Assembly: GCF_032062105.1 (NCBI RefSeq)
Contig: NW_026941041.1
Span: 62,001 to 126,000 of the forward strand
DNA: 64,000 nucleotides
Direction of reading: 5' to 3'
Origin: Saccostrea cucullata
Lineage: Eukaryota
This document shows, piece after piece, positions 10,714 to 58,383 of the stretch; within the stretch, counting starts at the first letter, position 1, and each line of letters starts with the position of its first letter. The notes below the pieces were generated by a model. It was not told the origin of the DNA, did no database searches, and saw nothing but the letters and a program-made list of their open reading frames with translations. The translations under genes were made by a program, and so were the position numbers.

Positions 10714-11564
10714 TCAAAAAATCATTGTGACTTGGGGAGAAGTTGGATTTGGAGCCTGCGTAGTGGAGACTTCCGCTGAGGGTATACATTTGGGATTGTG
10801 ATGCACGTGCTGACCGCCGTGGACCTCCACCGTCTCCCCGCGGCATGTCAGCCCCTCCTCACACGGACAATAGTTCATAAACATATTCGGATTACCAAAA
10901 TCGTGGACAAGAAACACGTGGCAAGTCTGCCCTTGGTATCGGCGTGCATGGCAAGTGCCTTTGGATGCCCCGAAAATGAATCGGCGCATGCGCCTGTCTT
11001 CTGCAACACAGCATTCTGTGTCTCCACAGTCCGCGGAGGATGTGCACGACTCTCCCAGGGAATGTACTGTCTGTGAAGAAACATTTCTGTGATACAATGT
11101 TTGTGCAAGGGAAAAACTAGGTATAAATATCATGTATAAAAATGATTAATTAATTAATTTAAAATGTAGTTACGACAAGTTCTAGTCAAGGAAGTATAAA
11201 AACTTTATATAACATTGTATTACGATTACTGATAAATAAAATTACATAAAAGATTAGGAATAAGCACAATTATTGTTCAAAGTACACACGATGGAAGATG
11301 CAAAATGAAAAGACTCAACTGAGAAATGAAAGTTGTACTTTCTTTGTAAACACATCTGATTAACCGACTACAAATATACTGTTACACCTATACGTACATT
11401 ATATTACTGCATTAGATTTATTTCGATCTATTTATTTTGGAAATTACTTGAGTACTTTTAGGCTGATGGGCGTTCATTCATTATTTTGTTGAATACGTTT
11501 GATTTTTTCTGACACTTACCACTAAAATATCCACTATCACCAAAAAGACCAGAGAGAACTTCAT
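10714..11564 (-). CDS. Secreted prokineticin/astakine-like (colipase-fold) 10-Cys protein, paralog A (133 aa)
   Basis: Exons 11564-11520 (MKFSLVFLVIVDILV) and 11070-10714. Cys pattern C-5-C-4-CC...C...C...CPC..GLTC...C; internal RRMRR site. Confidence 0.85.
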
Positions 11565-40465: not shown

Positions 40466-41849
40466 TTACAAACGTCCCCAGACAATAACCTCCGCCACGG
40501 AGAGGTAGTTGTTCCACCCCTCCACAATCTGTATCTCAACATAACGACCGAATGTGTTGTACGGACAAAACACTGCGATCCGCTCCCCACCTCTGGTAGA
40601 GGGTCCTGTAAAGTGGCCACATAGATGCATGGCGTGTAGATCATTGCCTACACGTATATCTACGTCATGAAGCCGTTCAGCTGAAGAAAAAATATTGATA
40701 TAGCAAATAAATGTTTGATGTTATCAAAGCTAAAGAGATAGAGGAAGATGAGATTTTATAATAAATAATTATTTGATTCTAATATTGATCAGAATTTGCA
40801 TTTGAAGGCTATTGCATGATATAGTATATCCGTGGATTTAATTTAATATATTTACAATAAGAACTGTAACATTTGACAATTGTATGATGTAAAATGTTCT
40901 ATTTAAGGAATCACTGTCTAGTTAGTATAGTATGCCAGGACATCGACGATAGTGGGAAACATTAGATTTGCGAAGCCCGTTATGAATAACATATCCCATG
41001 TTGAAGCCCGTTATACAAATTATCCCATGTTTCCCATGATGTCCTTGGCATACTTTACTATCTAGACAGTGATTATTTATATTTCCATTTCATTGTGAAA
41101 TAAAATTGTAAATTTAGACTTTAAAAATGTAGAGATAGATTTAATTTACACGAGGACTCCCATGCCTATTTTAATAGTCCTCGCCCACTGACGTCAAACA
41201 CATTGGCATCCGCACGAGATTTACAAGCATATTTGGCCTCCTTAGCGTCAGACACAGAGACAGATGCGCATGAGATTTGCATGCATATTAGGCCTCCTTA
41301 GCTCCTGATCTATCAACCTGCCTAGTTTACATTCTGGTAGAGTTATGAAGAAATCAACTCCGCTAGCTTTCAAAGAGTTATCACAGAGAAAAAAAATTAG
41401 AAATGGAAATATATACAATAACATGTCGTTGTAACAAACACTAATTACATAAAAGTTAAATAAAATATTTCAAATAATTATTGGACAAGCCCCAAAATGC
41501 TGTTTAATTTTAAAAAGTAAAAACATTGGCTATCGACAAGTGTAAATGAAAGCTTAGTAAACCTACGGCAACAATCTCTCCTGTTAAATACTTCTACTTC
41601 ATGAACTGTGTAGTTCCTTCCCAGATCGATTCTTATCCATGGATTTTTTTCTAGTTTCGTATGGGTGAAGTCCGTGAAGACACCATTGACGGCATAAGAC
41701 GCTGGTATATGGTGATAAGTTGAGCTCTGTCTTGCGAATTTACCATACGCCACATTCTTTAAATTACGCGGAAGACGGTGACCCATCGTGTTTTGGATAT
41801 CACAGATGAAAGCCAAAAACAAGACCGATAGCAAAGAGCAAATCACCAT
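40466..41849 (-). CDS. F-type lectin (fucolectin), paralog A (165 aa)
   Basis: Exons 41849-41567 and 40680-40466. Signal peptide; NVAYGK..QSS; exact H-x26-R-x-D-x4-R motif (RRDCCPER); GRYV; LSVAEVIVWG. Confidence 0.92.
40903..41081. mobile_element. Long hairpin element (Crypton-like) in the lectin intron
   Basis: TTAAGGAATCACTGTCTAG...CTAGACAGTGATTATTTATA inverted arms. Confidence 0.55.
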
Positions 41850-42456
41850 TATGATATTGTTAAAAAAATCTAGGGATGATCTTCCTTGCGTTTGTCTTTT
41901 TTTGTAACTAAGTGTCGTGATTTTTTTCACAACAATAGTTATTGTTGACAAATGCACGGGTGATCGTACATGTAACAGGTGTGAGCATTATTTTTATTGC
42001 ATTTATCAGTAAGGGGAGACTTGTAACCAGATATATGTACTAAAACTTAAAACCGAAACGTGCAGCATGCACTATGTAAAATAATAATAAAATCTCTATA
42101 ATACATCTTAATGTATTTAAATAATATCAAAATAACTTGCAAAATTAAGTTTTGTTCTGTAAACATGTATATAGGGAGTTCTGATAAAAGTTCCCCCAAG
42201 CCCTTTGATTTATAACTACATGTACTAAAAATTGGTCGCAGTTAAGGAAAAACACATGAGGAACTGTTGAATAAAATATTCTTCAAGTGGGATAAAACAT
42301 ATTTGATTACTTCAAACCCCCAAGGTTATTTTCAAAAATTTAAAATCACATAATTTTACCTTAATAAAAATCATAGAAAAGTGAAACTTTCCAACACTCT
42401 ATTTAAGCCTTCCCAATTAAAAATTAAAAGTCCTGGCTTCTTGTCACCACAGACAG

Positions 42457-49546: not shown

Positions 49547-51149
49547 AGACTTGTGTGATTTGTTCTACCTGGGCCATACATGTATTGAATGAAAACTATT
49601 CATAGAACCACAAGAACATTGTAAATCTATGTAAGGTCTTCTGTGTATGTTGTATTCCTTATATAATTTACTGTTTTATAACAAGACTTTGTTTCATTGG
49701 ACAGACCAGGTACTAAAACTTAATACATGTACACATACAAAACCAAAAAACAGTTGTGATATTTATTGTTTTTTATTACTCATTAGTTCTCATTTTTGTG
49801 TGAAATTTTATAATTTTCCATTTCTTGTTCCCCAAAACCATATCTTACAAATGTTAGGGTATATTCGGGTAATTCCGGACAGCGGGTAATTCCGGACAGA
49901 AATAAAATGCCTCTGTTTTATGTTATCGTCAATGAAAATCGTCTTATTTTCTCTGAATTGTGTGTATCATTTTGGAAAATAAAACCTTTATTCTTTTCTA
50001 TCATATTCATTTTTAATCAAAGGGAATTCCCGATTATTTAGCATGACGTCAATAAAATGACCTTTGCACTTTCTGTTTTGTTGTTGTTGTCGATTTGCGG
50101 GAAAATTCAACTTGCTTACACCAGAGACCAGAGTGAAAAAACTACGAAACAAGTAAGTATTAAATGAAAATATTTTAATAACCGTAATATTTTAGTTCAA
50201 AGAAGTTAAACATCGAAAAAATTTATGTTATATTATATTTTTATGTCAAATTTTAACTTAAAATGAAAAAAATAAAATGTCCGGATTTACCCTACCAAAA
50301 AAATTAAGTGAGGGTAATTGCGGACATAGTTAAATTGTGTTCTTTTAGCATTTCTATGTGATTTATTTTCATCTGGGCCTACATTAAATCTATAAGATTA
50401 CGAAATTCTAAACTAGGCCTATTTGAATTAGTTGTTTACATAATATCATACATAATAAATTAATTTCAAGAATGTATTATGCTGTATCAGTGTATGCTAC
50501 AGAGACTCATGCAGAGTCACGCACTGGGGGAAAAGGGTCGCTGCAGAACTGTAGCTCTCCGAAAAAAAAGATCAGCCTATTGACAGACCGGAGTATGTAT
50601 TTTTTTTCGTATAGCTACAGTTCAGCTAGGGAAAACGTGTGAGGGGGCTCTTAAACTAAAATTCTCGGGCACAGATAAAGCATTTTAAAAGCTTTCATAA
50701 TCATCAACTCGTGTGTGCGCAGGTGTGGGTGGGTGATGTCCGTTACAGTTATCTACTACAAAATGTATCTACTAAAAAAAAATGAAATACTGATTATTTA
50801 AAAAAAAATAAAACAGGGGCCAAAATGCGAGTTGGGCGAAGAGAAAATCAAATCCATAGTAACATGACGGGACAGTCATAAAGTGGAAGAGCTCAAATAT
50901 ATTTAATACTCTGTTCTGCCCCCCCCCCCCCCCTTTTCCCCTATAAAGCAGCTCTTTTTTAAGAGTGAGTGATGATATAATATTTTTTTTTACAATTTAA
51001 ACGTACAAAATAAGGTGCCTATAATACGCTGGAAATATTTATTTAAAATTATACTTATGAATTACTCAAATCTACACACCGTGACACGCTTAAACATAAT
51101 AAATTCTTCCTACATCTTATCCATTTCAGTTCTATACATTTCCGCAGAG

Positions 51150-51530
51150 ATGCCAATTTTAGTCATCCACAACTTATGGGCCGTCGGAATGCACCACTGG
51201 GGACCTAAAGAATTGGCAGTGGGGGCAGGGTATAAGCTCCAACATGAAGAAAATAATCCATATGATTGTAATGCGACGGCAATATTAGACGGGCCAAATA
51301 AGAAGGCATATTTAAAACGGACAGATGCCAAAATAGTATCGTCTTTGTTTACTATTGTACCAGGGTCAAAATGGTTATTAAAACCTAAAGAGGTCCCAGT
51401 AGTACTGAATCAACGTGTTGGTCCACAACAGCGATGTTCGATAGGCTGCAGGATTTCGGACGATTCTGTACTTCAACGAGTTGTCCACGAACTTGATTCT
51501 TCAAATATCATTTATGAGATCAAATATTAA
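51150..51530 (+). CDS. Stand-alone HIRAN-domain protein (126 aa) inside the transposon
   Basis: AVGMHHW...YKLQHEENNPYDCNATAI...KAYLKRTDA matches the HIRAN pattern (G..., L..E..NPYD.NA, Y+.R). ATG is 2 nt after acceptor ttccgcag; AATAAA at 51562. Confidence 0.8.
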   Translation: MPILVIHNLWAVGMHHWGPKELAVGAGYKLQHEENNPYDCNATAILDGPNKKAYLKRTDAKIVSSLFTIVPGSKWLLKPKEVPVVLNQRVGPQQRCSIGCRISDDSVLQRVVHELDSSNIIYEIKY

Positions 51531-52252
51531 AAGTAAATGACTGTGTGATATTATTTAATTAAATAAAATTCCGAGAATTCTTTTTTTTCTTCATTCAATC
51601 GAAAACATATAGGGAATGAAGCTTATTCCTTATTATTAAGTGTAGACAATGAGATTTTTTTTTCTTCCGGAAAAGGCTTCAAATTTTACACATTTTCAAA
51701 GTTATGTCAAGCGGAGTTATATGTTTTTGACGTATTAAACTCATTGTAACGTACATGTAGGCAAGTTATGTTATACAAAATGGGGAGGGGGGATGCACAA
51801 ACGTGTCGGTATGCTGGATAACAACTTAAATTTTTCGCTTCCAGCATTCGAGCTCAGGCACCCCCCCCCTACTTTTTTACTAATTCTATAGAAATGTTAG
51901 TTGAAAGTATTGTTCCCCCCCCCTGTTAGTGATGTGCGCAAAAATGTAGTAAAAAAGTACAAAAATTGGTCCTGACAGTAGTTGACACCCCCCCCCCCCC
52001 CCGAAATAGGATTTTCGACTTAGGGCAATCCCCCCGCCCTTTTTTTTTTGCTTGACAACATTTTCAGGTAAGTTAAATTTTTTTCTTCTTTTCTCCCCCC
52101 CCCTCACCACTTTCACGATGTTACGTGCCTGGATCTGAAAATCAATCTGAATTTAACCACAATTTCTCGGCTATTTCAGATGAAAATAAATCACATAGTA
52201 CTCATTTTACATATCATTCAATAGAACATAAGGTTAAATATTTTTACAGAAC

Positions 52253-54073
52253 ATGCCAAAAGCATACAAGCAACGGAAAAGAGAACCTTACAGCTCTGAG
52301 AGTATGCAGAATGCAGTGTCCTCTGTAATGAAAGGCACTTACTCCATTAGAAAGGCTGCAGAAATGTTTAATGTAAATAAATCAACCTTCCATGACACGA
52401 TTAAAAAAAAGTATAAGAACCCTGGTCAACCTGGTAGAAAAACAGCGATCCCACCAGAAGTTGAACAAAAGATAGCAAATGCTTTGAAGGAAGCATCTAA
52501 ACAGGGCATGGGCATTTCAAGGCGGCAATTATTGCGCCGGGTAGGCAGTTTATGCAAAAAAATGAAAATCGAGGTTGATCAATTTAAGCAACAGACCCCC
52601 GGAAAGGACTGGTTTGTTGGTTTTATGAAGCGACATCCAACACTGTCAATTCGCAAACCAGAGAAGTTAGCGACAACAAGAGCAAGGATGACAAATCCGG
52701 CGATAGTCTCAAAATATTTCGATGATCTTGGGCAAATTCTGAAAAATCTTGGCTTGTTATCAAAACCTGCGTGCATATGGAATTGCGATGAAACTGGAAA
52801 AAGTTTTGAGCACACACCAGTAAAAGTCATTGCGGAAAAGGGATCTAAGGCTGTGGTAGGGAGGACATCATCATGCAGGACAAATATAACGGTCATGGCA
52901 TGTGTGAATGCTGCTGGGGGTAAGATGTCTCCATTGTTTATTGTCAAAGGCAAGACATCCAGATCCTTGCATGGATTTAACACCCTTGCTGCCCCACAAG
53001 GAACACGCTGGCACTACCAAGCTAATGGCTGGATGAATGACGACATTGGCGAAAAATGGTTTGAGGACGTTTTCCTTATGGAGTGTGGCACAGAAAGGCC
53101 CCAGCTCCTGATTCTGGATGGCCACTCCTCCCACGAGAGTCTTTCCATCATTGAGTTGGCCATCCAGAATGATATCCACATTCTGAGCCTCCCTCCTCAT
53201 ACTACACATGCCCTTCAGCCTCTTGATCGCTGTGTATTTGGTCCGCTTAACAGCGCCTACAACACTGAATGCTCAAACTTCCTTAACCAGAACCCACTCA
53301 ACAACATCAACAAATGGTCATTTCCAGGTATTTTGGCCGTTGCCTGGGAAACAGCTGTCTCCAAAACAAATATCCAAGCTGGTTTCCAATCATGTGGCAT
53401 ATTTCCGTTTAATCCATCAGCTGTTGCTCCTGAGCTGTTGAAGCCTTCCATTCCTTCAGATAAGCCCAAACCCCTTCTGTCTTCCGCAGATGAAATATCA
53501 TCAACCACCACTCTTTCTAAGCATTCTGAGGTATCCTCTGGTCCCCCCTCGGTTTCTGGTCCTTCTGTATCTTCTTCTAGTGGTCCAGTATCTTTCACTA
53601 TTGTCTCTTCAGGAGTTGGTTCATCCTTATTGCCTACAGTCACCCCATCTACACGACAGGATCTTTCCATTAATGAGGCCCCTTAAATCAATGACAGTCA
53701 AGATAGTACAATAAGTCTTGTTTCACATGTTGACAATATGACAACTCCTCCCTTGGCAGATGACCCAGAAATGCTACTTGCATTGATAAATGATGGCCAT
53801 GTAGAAGTATTTACCCCAGACAAAGAGGGCACAGTTGAAATTCATCAGTCTGGCATTTGGGATTCCGCCATATCAGACATTTTTCTCCCACTTCAGTCTG
53901 TTGAACCAAATAAACCAGCTGAGCCTAAACCGAGATCAAAGTCTTCATCTCACAGACTCTTGACCTCGGAAGAAATTCTTCTGGAAAAACAGATGATGTG
54001 GCAGAAGAAGGAGAATGCTAACCTGAAAAAACAAAAGAGAAAGGAAAAGCTTGATTTAAAGAAAAAAAAATGA
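52253..54073 (+). CDS. pogo/Tigger-like transposase (HTH_psq, CENP-B HTH, DDE_1), with a break in the C-terminal tail
   Basis: ORF 52253-53686: SIRKAAEMFNV, GKDWFVGFMKRHP, WNCDETG, ILDGHSSH, LQPLD (35 residues between the 2nd and 3rd D). The tail continues as 53738-54073 (RLLTSEEIL, Lys-rich end). Confidence 0.92.
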
Positions 54074-54399
54074 ACCCCTTCATACATTTAATCTGATGAC
54101 AAAAGTTTGATTGACAAATTGTTTATTTATTGTTTCTGTTAAGCATGATATTTATTTCATTGTTGATGACGAGTATTTTATACTTAACAAGGCACCACTA
54201 CAAGAATGAATACCTTAAGTTTCTGTATTTTTATATGTTGACAACTGAAAACGAGTCACCAGAAAATTACTGTAAACTGGTTAATTTAAATAATTCATAC
54301 TGTTAACTGGTTAAATAAATAAATACCCTTTCTGGCATGAAGTTCCCAGCTGTAAAATAATTTCAATTTCTCATGTCTCTTTTTAAAGGTGTTGATTAT

Positions 54400-54552
54400 T
54401 TAAGGAATGAATTTAATAGCTACCCATTTTATAAACTGGGTTGGGGCAGTTTACGCTTTATAAACAGCGAAGCGGAAAAGGCGTAGAAGTGCTCCAACCC
54501 ATGCAGTTTATACCGTATAAAATGGGTAGCTATAAAATTCATTGCTTATAAT
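54400..54552. mobile_element. Long hairpin element (Crypton-like) nested in the pogo element
   Basis: TTAAGGAATGAATTTAATAGCTACCCATTTTATA...TATAAAATGGGTAGCTATAAAATTCATTGCTTATAAT. Confidence 0.55.
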
Positions 54553-57500
54553 TTAATTTTCATTTATTTTATGTAAGGAAAAAAGATGATTGTTCTAACA
54601 AAATGACTTTTAATTTGTACAAAATTTGATTGTCGTCAGGCGGATTGATACGTTTTTGACGGAAGTCATTGTGACGTAGGCAACCCATTTTATACGATAT
54701 ATAAAAGTAATTTTTTTTATCTTATTAATTACAGCGTTACAACCAAAATTAATTTATTAGCAACTTGTTGTAACGTTATTTTTAAAAGGTGTATTCTACT
54801 TCTCCCAAGATCGTATGTGTGTGTGTGTATATCCTTACTCTGAGTTTCTGATCAAATTAAAGTATTTTAAAGTTCCTAAATTAACTTACCATTGATGCTT
54901 TTCAGTTACGATGATCTTAGCGTTCTTTTTTCCTTTTGTTAATATATGACTTCTTCTCCGCTGTTTACAGCTGTATAACTTGTCATCAATGCGACTGACG
55001 CTTTAATTTATATATCCAATGGCTATTCCATTATACCAAGGGGTTGTCAGGTCATTCCATTGATTGATGCAAAAAGGCATTGATTTTTTTTTACCTTTCA
55101 ACGCGTGCCTCAACAAACAGACTTTCAAGGGACTGTTGCGTTTTTTTTTTTTGTTTAAAGTCATATACGCTATATGAACGCCGAATTTAGGTTGAAACAA
55201 AATGATCAACGATTTAAAACACATGAAGTATAATAAAAAATAATACTTTCCACAAAATTGTACTATAGATGTCGTTGTAATAATAAAACAATTAAACAAT
55301 ATCTAGGAATCAAGTATTCAGTCTTTTCATGAATATTGATAAAGGAAGTGCGTAAACAGTAGGCCTATATATAGAAACACATGTCCACGGGAAATCACAG
55401 ACAACGAGGTATGTGGCATTTTGACAACAATTATTAATGTAAGGTTAATATGCATCATAACAGAGAAGATTGTTGATACTTAAATACATTAAAAGGTAAA
55501 GTACCATTAAGTATCCACGTCAAAAGTGAGTAGTATCTCAAACGGTCTACCTTGTTTTCTTTACGCCACGTGTGTTTATCAATCTAAAAGTACGGCGTCA
55601 CGTGATGGATTTATTTAAAAATAGCTGTTTTTCTTTCCTTGCAGGATAATAAATAATTATAATTTGATAACTTTGTAACGCGTTTAATTTTAATGGTGTA
55701 ATTTACAGTATTTTCGTAACTTTTCTTGATAAACAAATTGTATCAATTTCCAATCCTATTTTAACTGGCGCAAGTTATAGCGTGTATACTTTTAAACGGA
55801 ATGAAAATGTTTAAATGAAAGGCCGGTCTCTCTTTCCGGCATCAACTGAAGTTTTATTCAGTATCACTATGGTTAAATTATGATCGCAGTTTCCCGGTAG
55901 ATGTTTATTAATGTACCTCAGCGATTTTAATGTCAACCAAATATAAAAGCTCGCTTAAAAAAAAAAGAAATTCAGATTAATAGCGATGTCAACTTGTCGA
56001 AATGATATTTAAAATTCATAAATACCCCCCCCCCCCTCATCCATCGAAAAAAATCTTACTTTGTACATCTTCTGTCTCATTCTTGGCTTCTTCTTTGATG
56101 AATATTCATTCATTGTGTTTAGAATAAAAGAATTTGCAAAAATAGATATTCTGACGCAAAAAATCGAATTATTGGTCTTTTCTGTACTTTTAGCCTAAAT
56201 TAGTATTTACTATAAAGCCACAGTACACCACATAAATAAACAATGATAAAGTTATACACCAAAAAAATCGTAGAATTTTCATACACATCCATATGTGTGT
56301 GTTTGTAAAGGGAAGGGGGGGGGAGTAGTGACATATCAATCAGGATCGGATTATTTATGTTATTCTCATTTGATGGTATATAGTTTTATTCTTTTAAAGA
56401 ACAGATTATTTATTGTAAAATGCAAACTCCCCTCTCATCAAAAACAAATGGTCGTCCCCATAGATTCTGAAGTCCAAAAGTAACAAACGAGATGTAAGAT
56501 ACTAAGAAATTTAATTTTAAATATTTCTAAATAGAACTGTATTAACAACTGAGATGCTTTATATAATCGTGCTGCGGATCTTTGAAATCTTACAAATAAT
56601 CTATTTACTTACTGTATGCTATTATTTGGCATTGCACGTTTACGCCGCCATACAAGATTGGCCTGTCCGGATTTACCCGCATTGTGTCCGGATTTACCCC
56701 ACTCTGCCAATACGTTTTATTTTGCTAATATTTGAATAAGACCTGGGGGAAAACAATCTAAAACATCAATTTATCGAGGATTATGCATGGAATTCACACA
56801 TCGATTCAAAACTGGGTTACCCATCAATCAGTTTCGCGCTGCTACTCCCACCGAACAACGCTTATGTGAGTTTTGTCCGGAATTACCCGAATTTACCCTA
56901 TGTATTGCAACTTGCTTTTCAATTTTAACTTGTTATACTTGACAAAAAACAAGAGGTACTGTGAGCAATGAACTGACTAAATGATACCCCCGCCTCCCAT
57001 ATGATTATAATGGAAAAGTCCATGTTTTGCTGTGGCCGGGAAACCCAAAATATTTGTCAGGTCAAAAAGTAAAAGAGGAGGTGCACAATGACAATATGTA
57101 ATAAAGATTCTGTGAAGGTTTCATTAAATTTCACTCAGTGGTATAAGAGGAATTGCGGATAAGATATGAGGACATATTGTTTATTCTTGTTCCTTGGTTT
57201 CAATACTACAATCCATCAAAATATTTATCACCCCCCCCTTTAAAAAGATTATGCTTCAAATATATGTCATTAAAGTTTTGCACATGAGAACCTGCAAACA
57301 TGCTTCCGCCTATCAGTACTCTCAGTACTTTGATTTTTTTATTAATTTTTGTTTTTCTGAAATTTAAATTTACTGAAAATCTATTTTATCAAATACTTTT
57401 ACGTTTCAGCACTGTGAAAAAAGATGATTTAAAACTAATTGACAAAGTGCACTTTGTATGCCAAAACTTATTATTAGAAAGATGATAAGAATAAAAGTAT

Positions 57501-57708: not shown

Positions 57709-58383
57709 TTACAAACGTCCCCAAACAATGACTTCTGCAACAGAGAGGTAGTTGTTCCATCCCTCCACAATCTGTATCTGAACATAACGACCGAATGTGT
57801 TGAACGGACAAAACACTGCGATCCGCTCCCCGGATCTGCTGCAAGATCCGGTAAAATGGCCGCATAAATGCATGTCGTGCAAATCATTGCCAACTCGTAT
57901 ATCAACGTCATGAAGTCGTTGAACTAAAAGAAGAATTCAAAAAAAGCGAAAGAATATAGAGTAATACAGTATACTACATGTGTCTAAAGCTACATTTACA
58001 GATACAATTGTAAGTGAGAGAAGACCCAAGAAAAACCCTCATCTAATCTACAAAGGTGCTTACAATGCAAATGTCAATGATAAGATATAATGAAACTTAC
58101 AACAACAGTCTTTCCTACCAAATACTTCTACTTCATGGACTGTGTAGTTTCTGCCAAGATTAATTCTAATCCATGGATTTTTTTCCAGGTCGGTATGGGT
58201 GAAATCCGTAAAGACACCGTTTACAGCATTACCTGCCAGTGGGGTACTTCCCCAACTGGGGTCCGTGCTTTGAGAGGCAGACTTTCCATATGCCACATTC
58301 TGAAGAACGTTGTGACCAATCGAATATTTGATTTCAGAGTTGAAAGCCAGAAATATAATAAACAGCCGGTAACAATTTATCAT
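57709..58383 (-). CDS. F-type lectin (fucolectin), paralog B (165 aa)
   Basis: Exons 58383-58101 and 57923-57709 (same 283+215 nt as paralog A); H-x26-RKDCCFQR motif. Confidence 0.92.

Follow-up and report, generated by a model that had tools for sequence, protein, structure and literature searches.

A pogo transposon of Saccostrea cucullata in which a HIRAN gene and the transposase gene are predicted to be alternative terminal exons behind one leader

The 64,000 nucleotides of Saccostrea cucullata DNA analysed here (the window; assembly GCF_032062105.1, contig NW_026941041.1, positions 62,001 to 126,000 of the forward strand) contain a pogo (DD35D) transposon with terminal inverted repeats (TIRs) at 49857-56898, flanked by TA on both sides, which carries an open reading frame (ORF) with a HIRAN fold ahead of its transposase gene. 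On balance we favour an arrangement in which one promoter at the left end serves both genes, HIRAN and transposase being alternative terminal exons, and in which an RNA stem favours the transposase. The shared leader with its two terminal exons seems quite probable; that the stem acts on splicing is a step towards which we incline with less assurance. In such an arrangement a short non-coding leader would have two splicing partners: joined to the near acceptor it would yield a HIRAN mRNA with its end at the AATAAA at 51562, and joined to the far one it would yield the mRNA of the transposase. Left to itself, the near acceptor, which has a poly(A) site of its own, would prevail, and the paired arms of an inverted repeat would hide it in a loop of 1.8 kb and bring the donor to an effective distance of ~250 nt from the far acceptor. 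Since this stem could form only after transcription had passed the HIRAN poly(A) signal, the ratio of the two mRNAs would reflect how cleavage competes with formation of the stem.

A preliminary description of this DNA had proposed one leader exon with two acceptors, and all the motifs that it named are indeed present inside the pogo element (Table 1). The donor (CAA/GTAAGT, its G at 50153) lies 296 nt inside the left end, for which about 300 bp had been given, and TGACGTCA lies upstream of it at 50044-50051. The near acceptor, ttccgcag, ends at 51147 and is followed by AG and the ATG CCA of the HIRAN ORF (ATG at 51150), and the far acceptor, tttttacag, ends at 52249 and is followed by AAC and the ATG CCA of the transposase (ATG at 52253); copies of the TIR motif occur at 50278 and 50311 in the predicted intron. 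A second possible acceptor (catttcag) ends 18 nt further upstream, at 51129, and would result in the same HIRAN protein. The conservation of these sites across copies, proposed as a check, also held: GTAAGT is intact in 19 of 19 copies, the AG of acceptor 1 in all 18 that hold it and acceptor 2 in 7 of 7; on its own this is weak evidence because the copies are 86-98% alike. The proposal of two mRNAs from one promoter is better phrased as a choice between alternative terminal exons, the HIRAN exon having an AATAAA of its own.

Searches of the genome retrieved HIRAN copies down to ~34% identity, most of them followed on the same strand by a pogo transposase. These were named families F1 (that of the window) to F10, and pogo families without HIRAN N1-N8. 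All DNA comparisons were made within this one genome and, because the families share ancestry, the P values overstate their independence, which counts against the arrangement proposed, as do the points collected further below. A YAG occurs within 30 nt before all 19 HIRAN or transposase ATGs of 10 divergent families (background 0.42) and within 10 nt before 17 of them (background 0.228 of 16,542 ATGs; binomial P 1e-9); this plain distance-to-YAG statistic replaced an earlier pass/fail acceptor rule, which was post hoc and failed at 6 of 18 sites. Of the eight HIRAN-less families, six likewise show a YAG no more than 10 nt before the transposase ATG, the others lacking a YAG (one family) or an ATG (one family). 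In the transposase clade to which the element of the window belongs, all eight families with a left TIR found (F1, F2, F3, N1, N2, N3, N6, and N8) have their top-scoring donor upstream of the first ORF at a distance of 264-296 nt from the left end; N4, N5, and N7 (left TIR not found) and F6a, F6b, F8, and F9 (not located) are omitted from this count, and donors were scored with an untrained matrix. The best donor of the other transposase clade is weak and lies 176-220 nt from the left end.

This placement is kept although alignments of the left-end segments score like those of shuffled sequence (median 22, null mean 20), the F6a/F6b pair excepted. As the same leader donor is found in HIRAN-less families, the intron between leader and transposase looks like a clade-wide intron of the 5' untranslated region (5'UTR) that encloses the HIRAN cassette. 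An AATAAA follows the HIRAN stop within 100 nt in 7 of 8 families, as against 14% of 100-nt windows. The distance from HIRAN stop to transposase ATG is only 154 nt in F5, 72 nt in F6a, and 57 nt in F6b, which leaves no room for a second promoter and leader, and no donor above 2.3 occurs in this spacer in F5 or F6a. Among read-through proteins from other samples, 9 of 24 (three rows being one family) have FR, FS, YS, SR, or TR just before the Met, residues whose compatibility with a YAG one base before the ATG is suggestive. Scans of metagenome contigs with alignment A2 and with P0090 gave 254 and 108 pattern matches, respectively, and no confirmed relatives. In a tree of the transposases (28 rows, no outgroup) the HIRAN-less label requires 4 changes, one locus so labelled (L111) being mislabelled and having HIRAN remnants. 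The F3 transposase groups with those of F1 and F2 (99/97), whereas its HIRAN groups with that of F4 (97/95), the transposase of which belongs to the other clade; these trees contain hints of cassette loss and exchange between families.

The HIRAN exon is straddled by a perfect 22-nt inverted repeat. F1, F2, F3, F4, and F7 each possess an inverted repeat of their own, 22-28 nt in length, unrelated in sequence and at equivalent places (300 shuffles, p 0.003-0.017; duplexes of -20 to -34 kcal/mol); its left arm follows the donor by 130-324 nt in the five reference copies, and in four its right arm precedes the ATG by 54-100 nt; the scan used approximate starts for F3b, F6b, F6c, F8, and F9. None of five HIRAN-less introns contains such a repeat, the low p values of N3 and N6 being an artefact of masked N letters and the match in N1 (p 0.04, score 24) being AT-rich and gapped. 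When whole transcripts were folded in silico, the helix was predicted in all three families tried (22/22, 25/28, and 23/27 nt paired). Around the left arm, local folding is unremarkable (z -1.7). The F1 arm matches the genome at 27 places, each of them in an F1 copy, and the arms share neither termini nor a flanking duplication; they are therefore no TIRs of a nested element. Among F1 copies the right arm is without variants and the left arm has 0.19 states per column, compared with 0.15-0.32 in the neighbouring intron. In these five families the complementary boxes around the proximal acceptor are conserved in position, not in sequence.

A number of observations weigh against this arrangement. 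The inverted repeat is absent from 5 of 10 HIRAN families, so a stem is not required everywhere; three of these (F5, F6a, and F6b) are the families with very short HIRAN-transposase spacers and two (F8 and F9) are degraded. No compensatory change was found within any family, four changes in the F1 arms create mismatches, and the mismatches at the family level (G-U vs A-C 3 to 1, by eye) are too few to show pairing of the RNA strand. The donors of F4 and F5 are weak and second-ranked (1.2 and 2.5), F6a has no AATAAA, the F1 donor at 52068 is stronger than the leader donor and could serve a separate promoter, and an ATG at 50057 falls within the leader if transcription starts upstream of it. The constraint on HIRAN is weak within F1 copies (N/S 0.46-0.78, p 0.07-0.25; transposase 0.08-0.16). 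The RNA evidence consists of one run, X1 (share 0.09), kept as contigs, which cross the donor (49913-50212) and acceptor 2 (52132-52325) unspliced, and no splice joint within the element was found in this run. The coverage of the run extends to intergenic DNA and repeats all along a 19.5-kb stretch, so that the run may contain DNA or pre-mRNA. Among the 15 joints listed, one has the intron ends of the minus strand (CT..AC, 57923-58101, in a host gene), which makes the run a poor test either way. The leader with two acceptors is well backed by the comparative anatomy of the families and not by an observed junction, and on the junctions that the preliminary description had predicted run X1 offers neither support nor refutation.

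The leader and its two acceptors may be real and the inverted repeat may nevertheless act at the DNA level, or be a relic of capture, with no effect on splicing. The lack of covariation, the half of the HIRAN families without a repeat, and the conflict between the HIRAN and transposase trees of F3, hinting at cassette exchange, would all suit this explanation. It is, however, difficult to reconcile with five arm sequences at equivalent places that share no termini or duplication and never occur outside the element, or with the absence of the repeat where the far acceptor is close to the HIRAN stop, and a relic should have decayed like other non-coding DNA; we consider it improbable, though deserving of attention. 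It could also be argued that the leader is spliced to HIRAN only and that the transposase has a promoter and first exon further downstream, ending in F1 at the donor at 52068. This donor scores 9.0 compared with 5.5 for the leader donor, would leave an intron of 182 nt, and its word is present, exact or with one mismatch, in 7 F1 copies. Most other families, however, lack such a donor (best 1.4-4.7), three have spacers of just 57-154 nt, and HIRAN-less relatives pair the same leader donor with a transposase acceptor, so that separate promoters appear quite unlikely to us. That the splice signals are chance words or dead relics, and unused, would agree with the exclusively unspliced contigs and with the truncated transposase of the window, but is hardly credible in view of the donor and acceptor placement that is kept across unalignable families.

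The preliminary description had further suggested that transposase bound to the intronic TIR-motif copies controls the splice choice. These copies form an inner (subterminal) motif pair, which is invariant and is located ~120-250 nt downstream of the donor in the families whose sequences were inspected. The pair also follows the donor in HIRAN-less families, however, where there is no choice to regulate, it has an equivalent inside the right end, and it is as invariant as the TIR though about half of the copies lack a transposase. This autoregulation is not upheld and we find it very doubtful. The inner motifs are best read as predicted subterminal transposase-binding sites needed in cis for transposition, the invariance even in transposase-less copies pointing to a cis role; bound transposase might possibly affect transcription or elongation.

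The match of the 126-aa HIRAN ORF to Pfam PF08797 (E 0.0033) remains below the cut-off (17.7 bits, gathering score 24.7), and PF08797 is carried by 6 of 27 homologs. The family profile matches the HIRAN domain of HLTF (E 3.6e-4), the structure model has a mean confidence (pLDDT) of 91.9, and its best Foldseek matches are HLTF HIRAN-DNA structures (6kcs, E 9.4e-6); the HIRAN fold is confirmed by modelled fold and profile together. With the HIRAN of HLTF and Rad5 (PDB 6kcs, 4s0n, and 4xzf; excerpt of PMC5773155) the protein shares this fold (TM score 0.71) and the Asp of the NNPYD motif, but it differs in standing alone, in its 15% identity, in the variable Tyr before the Asp, and in a VGMHHWG motif. 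D39 aligns with the Asp of the YD motif of HLTF (D94), which reads the 3'-OH of DNA (excerpt of PMC5773155), and is nearly invariant; Y38 matches HLTF Y93 in the window copy but varies among families, and HLTF Y72 falls outside the HMMER alignment. The protein might, with the chances evenly balanced, bind DNA ends with a 3'-OH where the element is excised, at its termini, or at forks. Between families the synonymous sites of HIRAN are saturated, with a nonsynonymous divergence (pN) of 0.22-0.38, and dN/dS is 0.30 in one unsaturated pair; by these estimates HIRAN is under purifying selection across families. The protein family comprises 208 clusters at E 1e-10 or better, mostly of 120-135 aa. 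The named homologs come from Mytilus edulis, M. galloprovincialis, and Tegillarca granosa; all are automated models, and no isoform names under one gene id were found among them. Two Tegillarca models fuse the HIRAN ORF to an HTH_psq protein, which suggests the same HIRAN-transposase neighbourhood there. Two Mytilus edulis models (P0068 and P0069) have host exons fused to the HIRAN ORF exactly where it begins; the name FEN1 that one of them bears is probably a mis-annotation for which the acceptor of the element is responsible.

The element is a pogo transposon, with a DDE_1 domain bearing the DDxD triad, an N-terminal helix-turn-helix (HTH), TIRs, and a TA duplication. Its HTH_psq domain (E 6.4e-8; HTH_Tnp_Tc5, E 0.035, lies below the cut-off) would fit Fot/Fot-like among the DD35D groups, which also include Passer (excerpt of PMC7386202). 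The DDE_1 match (PF03184) has an E value of 2.9e-30 and 35 residues separate the last two Asp, as counted on the translation. The transposase of the window copy stops after residue 477, compared with 605-630 aa in 4 of the 5 sister copies translated.

To our knowledge, pogo/Tc1-mariner elements have been described as transposase-only. In the P element, retention of the third intron within one ORF is controlled by host proteins and gates transposase production; a splicing gate would be common to both, in the element of the window as a predicted choice of terminal exon, not intron retention. The element resembles the pogo DD35D groups (Fot/Fot-like and Passer; Gao et al., 2020, excerpt of PMC7386202; Dupeyron et al., 2020, excerpt of PMC7325037) in its TA duplication, short TIR, HTH_psq plus DDE_1, and DD35D, and is distinguished from them by a length of 7 kb with inserts, an upstream HIRAN-fold gene in the same direction, and a predicted shared leader. 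The En/Spm (CACTA) element produces a transposase and an accessory protein (tnpA/tnpD) from one transcription unit by alternative splicing, and TnpA was shown to be essential (excerpts of PMC1636069 and PMC13547354); the window element would, if our reading holds, likewise obtain transposase and accessory protein from one unit, but it belongs to another superfamily and would do so through a predicted long-range stem and a pair of terminal exons that do not overlap. Its layout matches that of intron 4 of Drosophila Nmnat, where the proximal acceptor of a polyadenylated terminal exon lies between complementary boxes that promote use of the distal acceptor (Raker et al., 2009; excerpt of PMC2724269); a stem around a proximal terminal-exon acceptor, tested in Nmnat, is predicted here. 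The words "HIRAN" and "intron" are absent from the main text of the two pogo surveys (PMC7386202 and PMC7325037; supplements outside this scope), no paper joining HIRAN and pogo as whole words was found in the literature (Repbase and subscription papers outside this scope), and among the titles and abstract starts listed for HIRAN domain and transposon none dealt with eukaryotic TIR cargo. Repbase and Puzakov et al. (2018; oyster ITm elements) may already hold such elements.

Present in at least 10 families of this genome and related to genes of Mytilus and Tegillarca, a conserved accessory gene whose fold is one of DNA repair points to an unrecognised step in DNA-end handling by these elements. 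If the stem works as predicted, an RNA structure encoded by the transposon would set the dosage of transposase without a regulatory protein, and the five natural sequence solutions would be directly testable in minigenes and offer a model for the origin and turnover of long-range splicing stems. A wider scenario, which we put forward tentatively and as rather unlikely to be correct in full, is that of a widespread bivalve pogo clade with a mobile HIRAN cassette in its 5'UTR intron, in which stems evolved repeatedly as a switch between HIRAN and transposase, host factors of elongation, cleavage, and dsRNA handling tune this switch, and HIRAN steers break repair.

Table 1. Features of the pogo element in the window (positions of the window; splice, leader, and poly(A) features are predictions)
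Feature	Positions	Strand	Basis or remark
TA target-site duplication, left	49855-49856	+	copies and empty site in run X1
Left TIR with tandem outer motif pair	49857-49899	+	no variants among copies
TGACGTCA, cAMP response element (CRE)-like word, family-specific	50044-50051	+	invariant in close copies
Putative non-coding leader exon, start approximate, conserved CGSGAA word ~55 nt before donor	50065-50152	+	family comparison
Leader splice donor GTAAGT	50153-50158	+	position shared by 8 related families
Inner (subterminal) motif pair, likely transposase-binding	50278-50327	.	no variants in 50 columns; in HIRAN-less families
Left arm of 22-nt inverted repeat	50354-50375	+	
Acceptor 1, AG ends 51147 (alternative AG ends 51129)	51130-51147	+	
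Stand-alone 126-aa HIRAN-fold ORF	51150-51530	+	profile, structure model, Foldseek
Predicted poly(A) signal AATAAA of HIRAN exon	51562-51567	+	
Strong extra donor TTTTCAG/GTAAGT, G at 52068, family-specific	52061-52073	+	
Right arm of inverted repeat, 51 nt before acceptor 2	52177-52198	+	no variants in 52178-52198
Acceptor 2	52235-52249	+	
Pogo transposase (HTH_psq, DDE_1, DD35D)	52253-54073	+	domain matches, sister copies
Right end: inner motif pair 56664-56702, TIR to 56898, TA 56899-56900	56664-56898	-	

Several smaller features of the leader and intron may be recorded. TGACGTCA is not general, a similar word being present solely in F2 and in locus L075 (by eye, in the printed sequences). 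A CGSGAA word, chosen post hoc, precedes the donor by 41-57 nt in 7 families and by 14 nt in F7 (8 of 13, background 1.5%), namely at 50097-50110 in the window and in the leaders of L072, L078, L081, L092, L093, L096, and L097; in 4 families it reads SSGSG-N4-TTYRA, which we take to resemble E2F/CDE-CHR cell-cycle elements. An open, hydrophobic frame of 32 codons runs from the ATG at 50057 to the donor (50152) and would, after splicing, be in frame with the transposase and not with HIRAN. A coding leader starting at this ATG was rejected as a general feature, since the relative L090 shifts the frame (by eye) and F2 has no such ATG. The tract at 52061-52073, an acceptor-like sequence fused to a strong donor as in recursive splice sites, is restricted to F1 copies and apparently lies inside a nested repeat within the predicted loop.

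A contig of run X1 joins 49854 to 56899 with a single TA; this empty site fixes the ends of the element and indicates that the insertion is missing from some chromosomes. The transposon is young. A search of the genome with the left end gave 20 close matches (93-100% identity, the window's own included) and 2 distant ones, and TA precedes the left end in 18 of the 19 other copies. These 19 comprise 7 copies with a transposase, 9 deletion derivatives, 1 short derivative with two ends, and 2 copies cut by contig ends. The nine deletion derivatives (L057, L058, L061-L063, and L066-L069), which are non-autonomous, have the transposase deleted and retain the leader and an interrupted HIRAN ORF, which is broken in all nine at one place (51345-51349) by an insert of 0.77-1.2 kb. 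In the short derivative, L070, the inner motif of the left end (50278-50292) is joined to that of the right end (56685) by a deletion between direct repeats. An insert at 55160-55790 is restricted to the window copy, and hairpin repeats at 50543-50626 and 54401-54548 look like nested MITEs.

The candidate host genes of the window include exons resembling F5/8 type C lectins on the minus strand (41478-41987 and 58060-58383), an exon of a multi-pass membrane protein on the plus strand (17339-18613), two Cys-rich paralogous exons on the minus strand (10714-11145 and 27568-27918), and a pair of paralogous ORFs without an assigned family, also on the minus strand (22278-22820 and 25273-25773).

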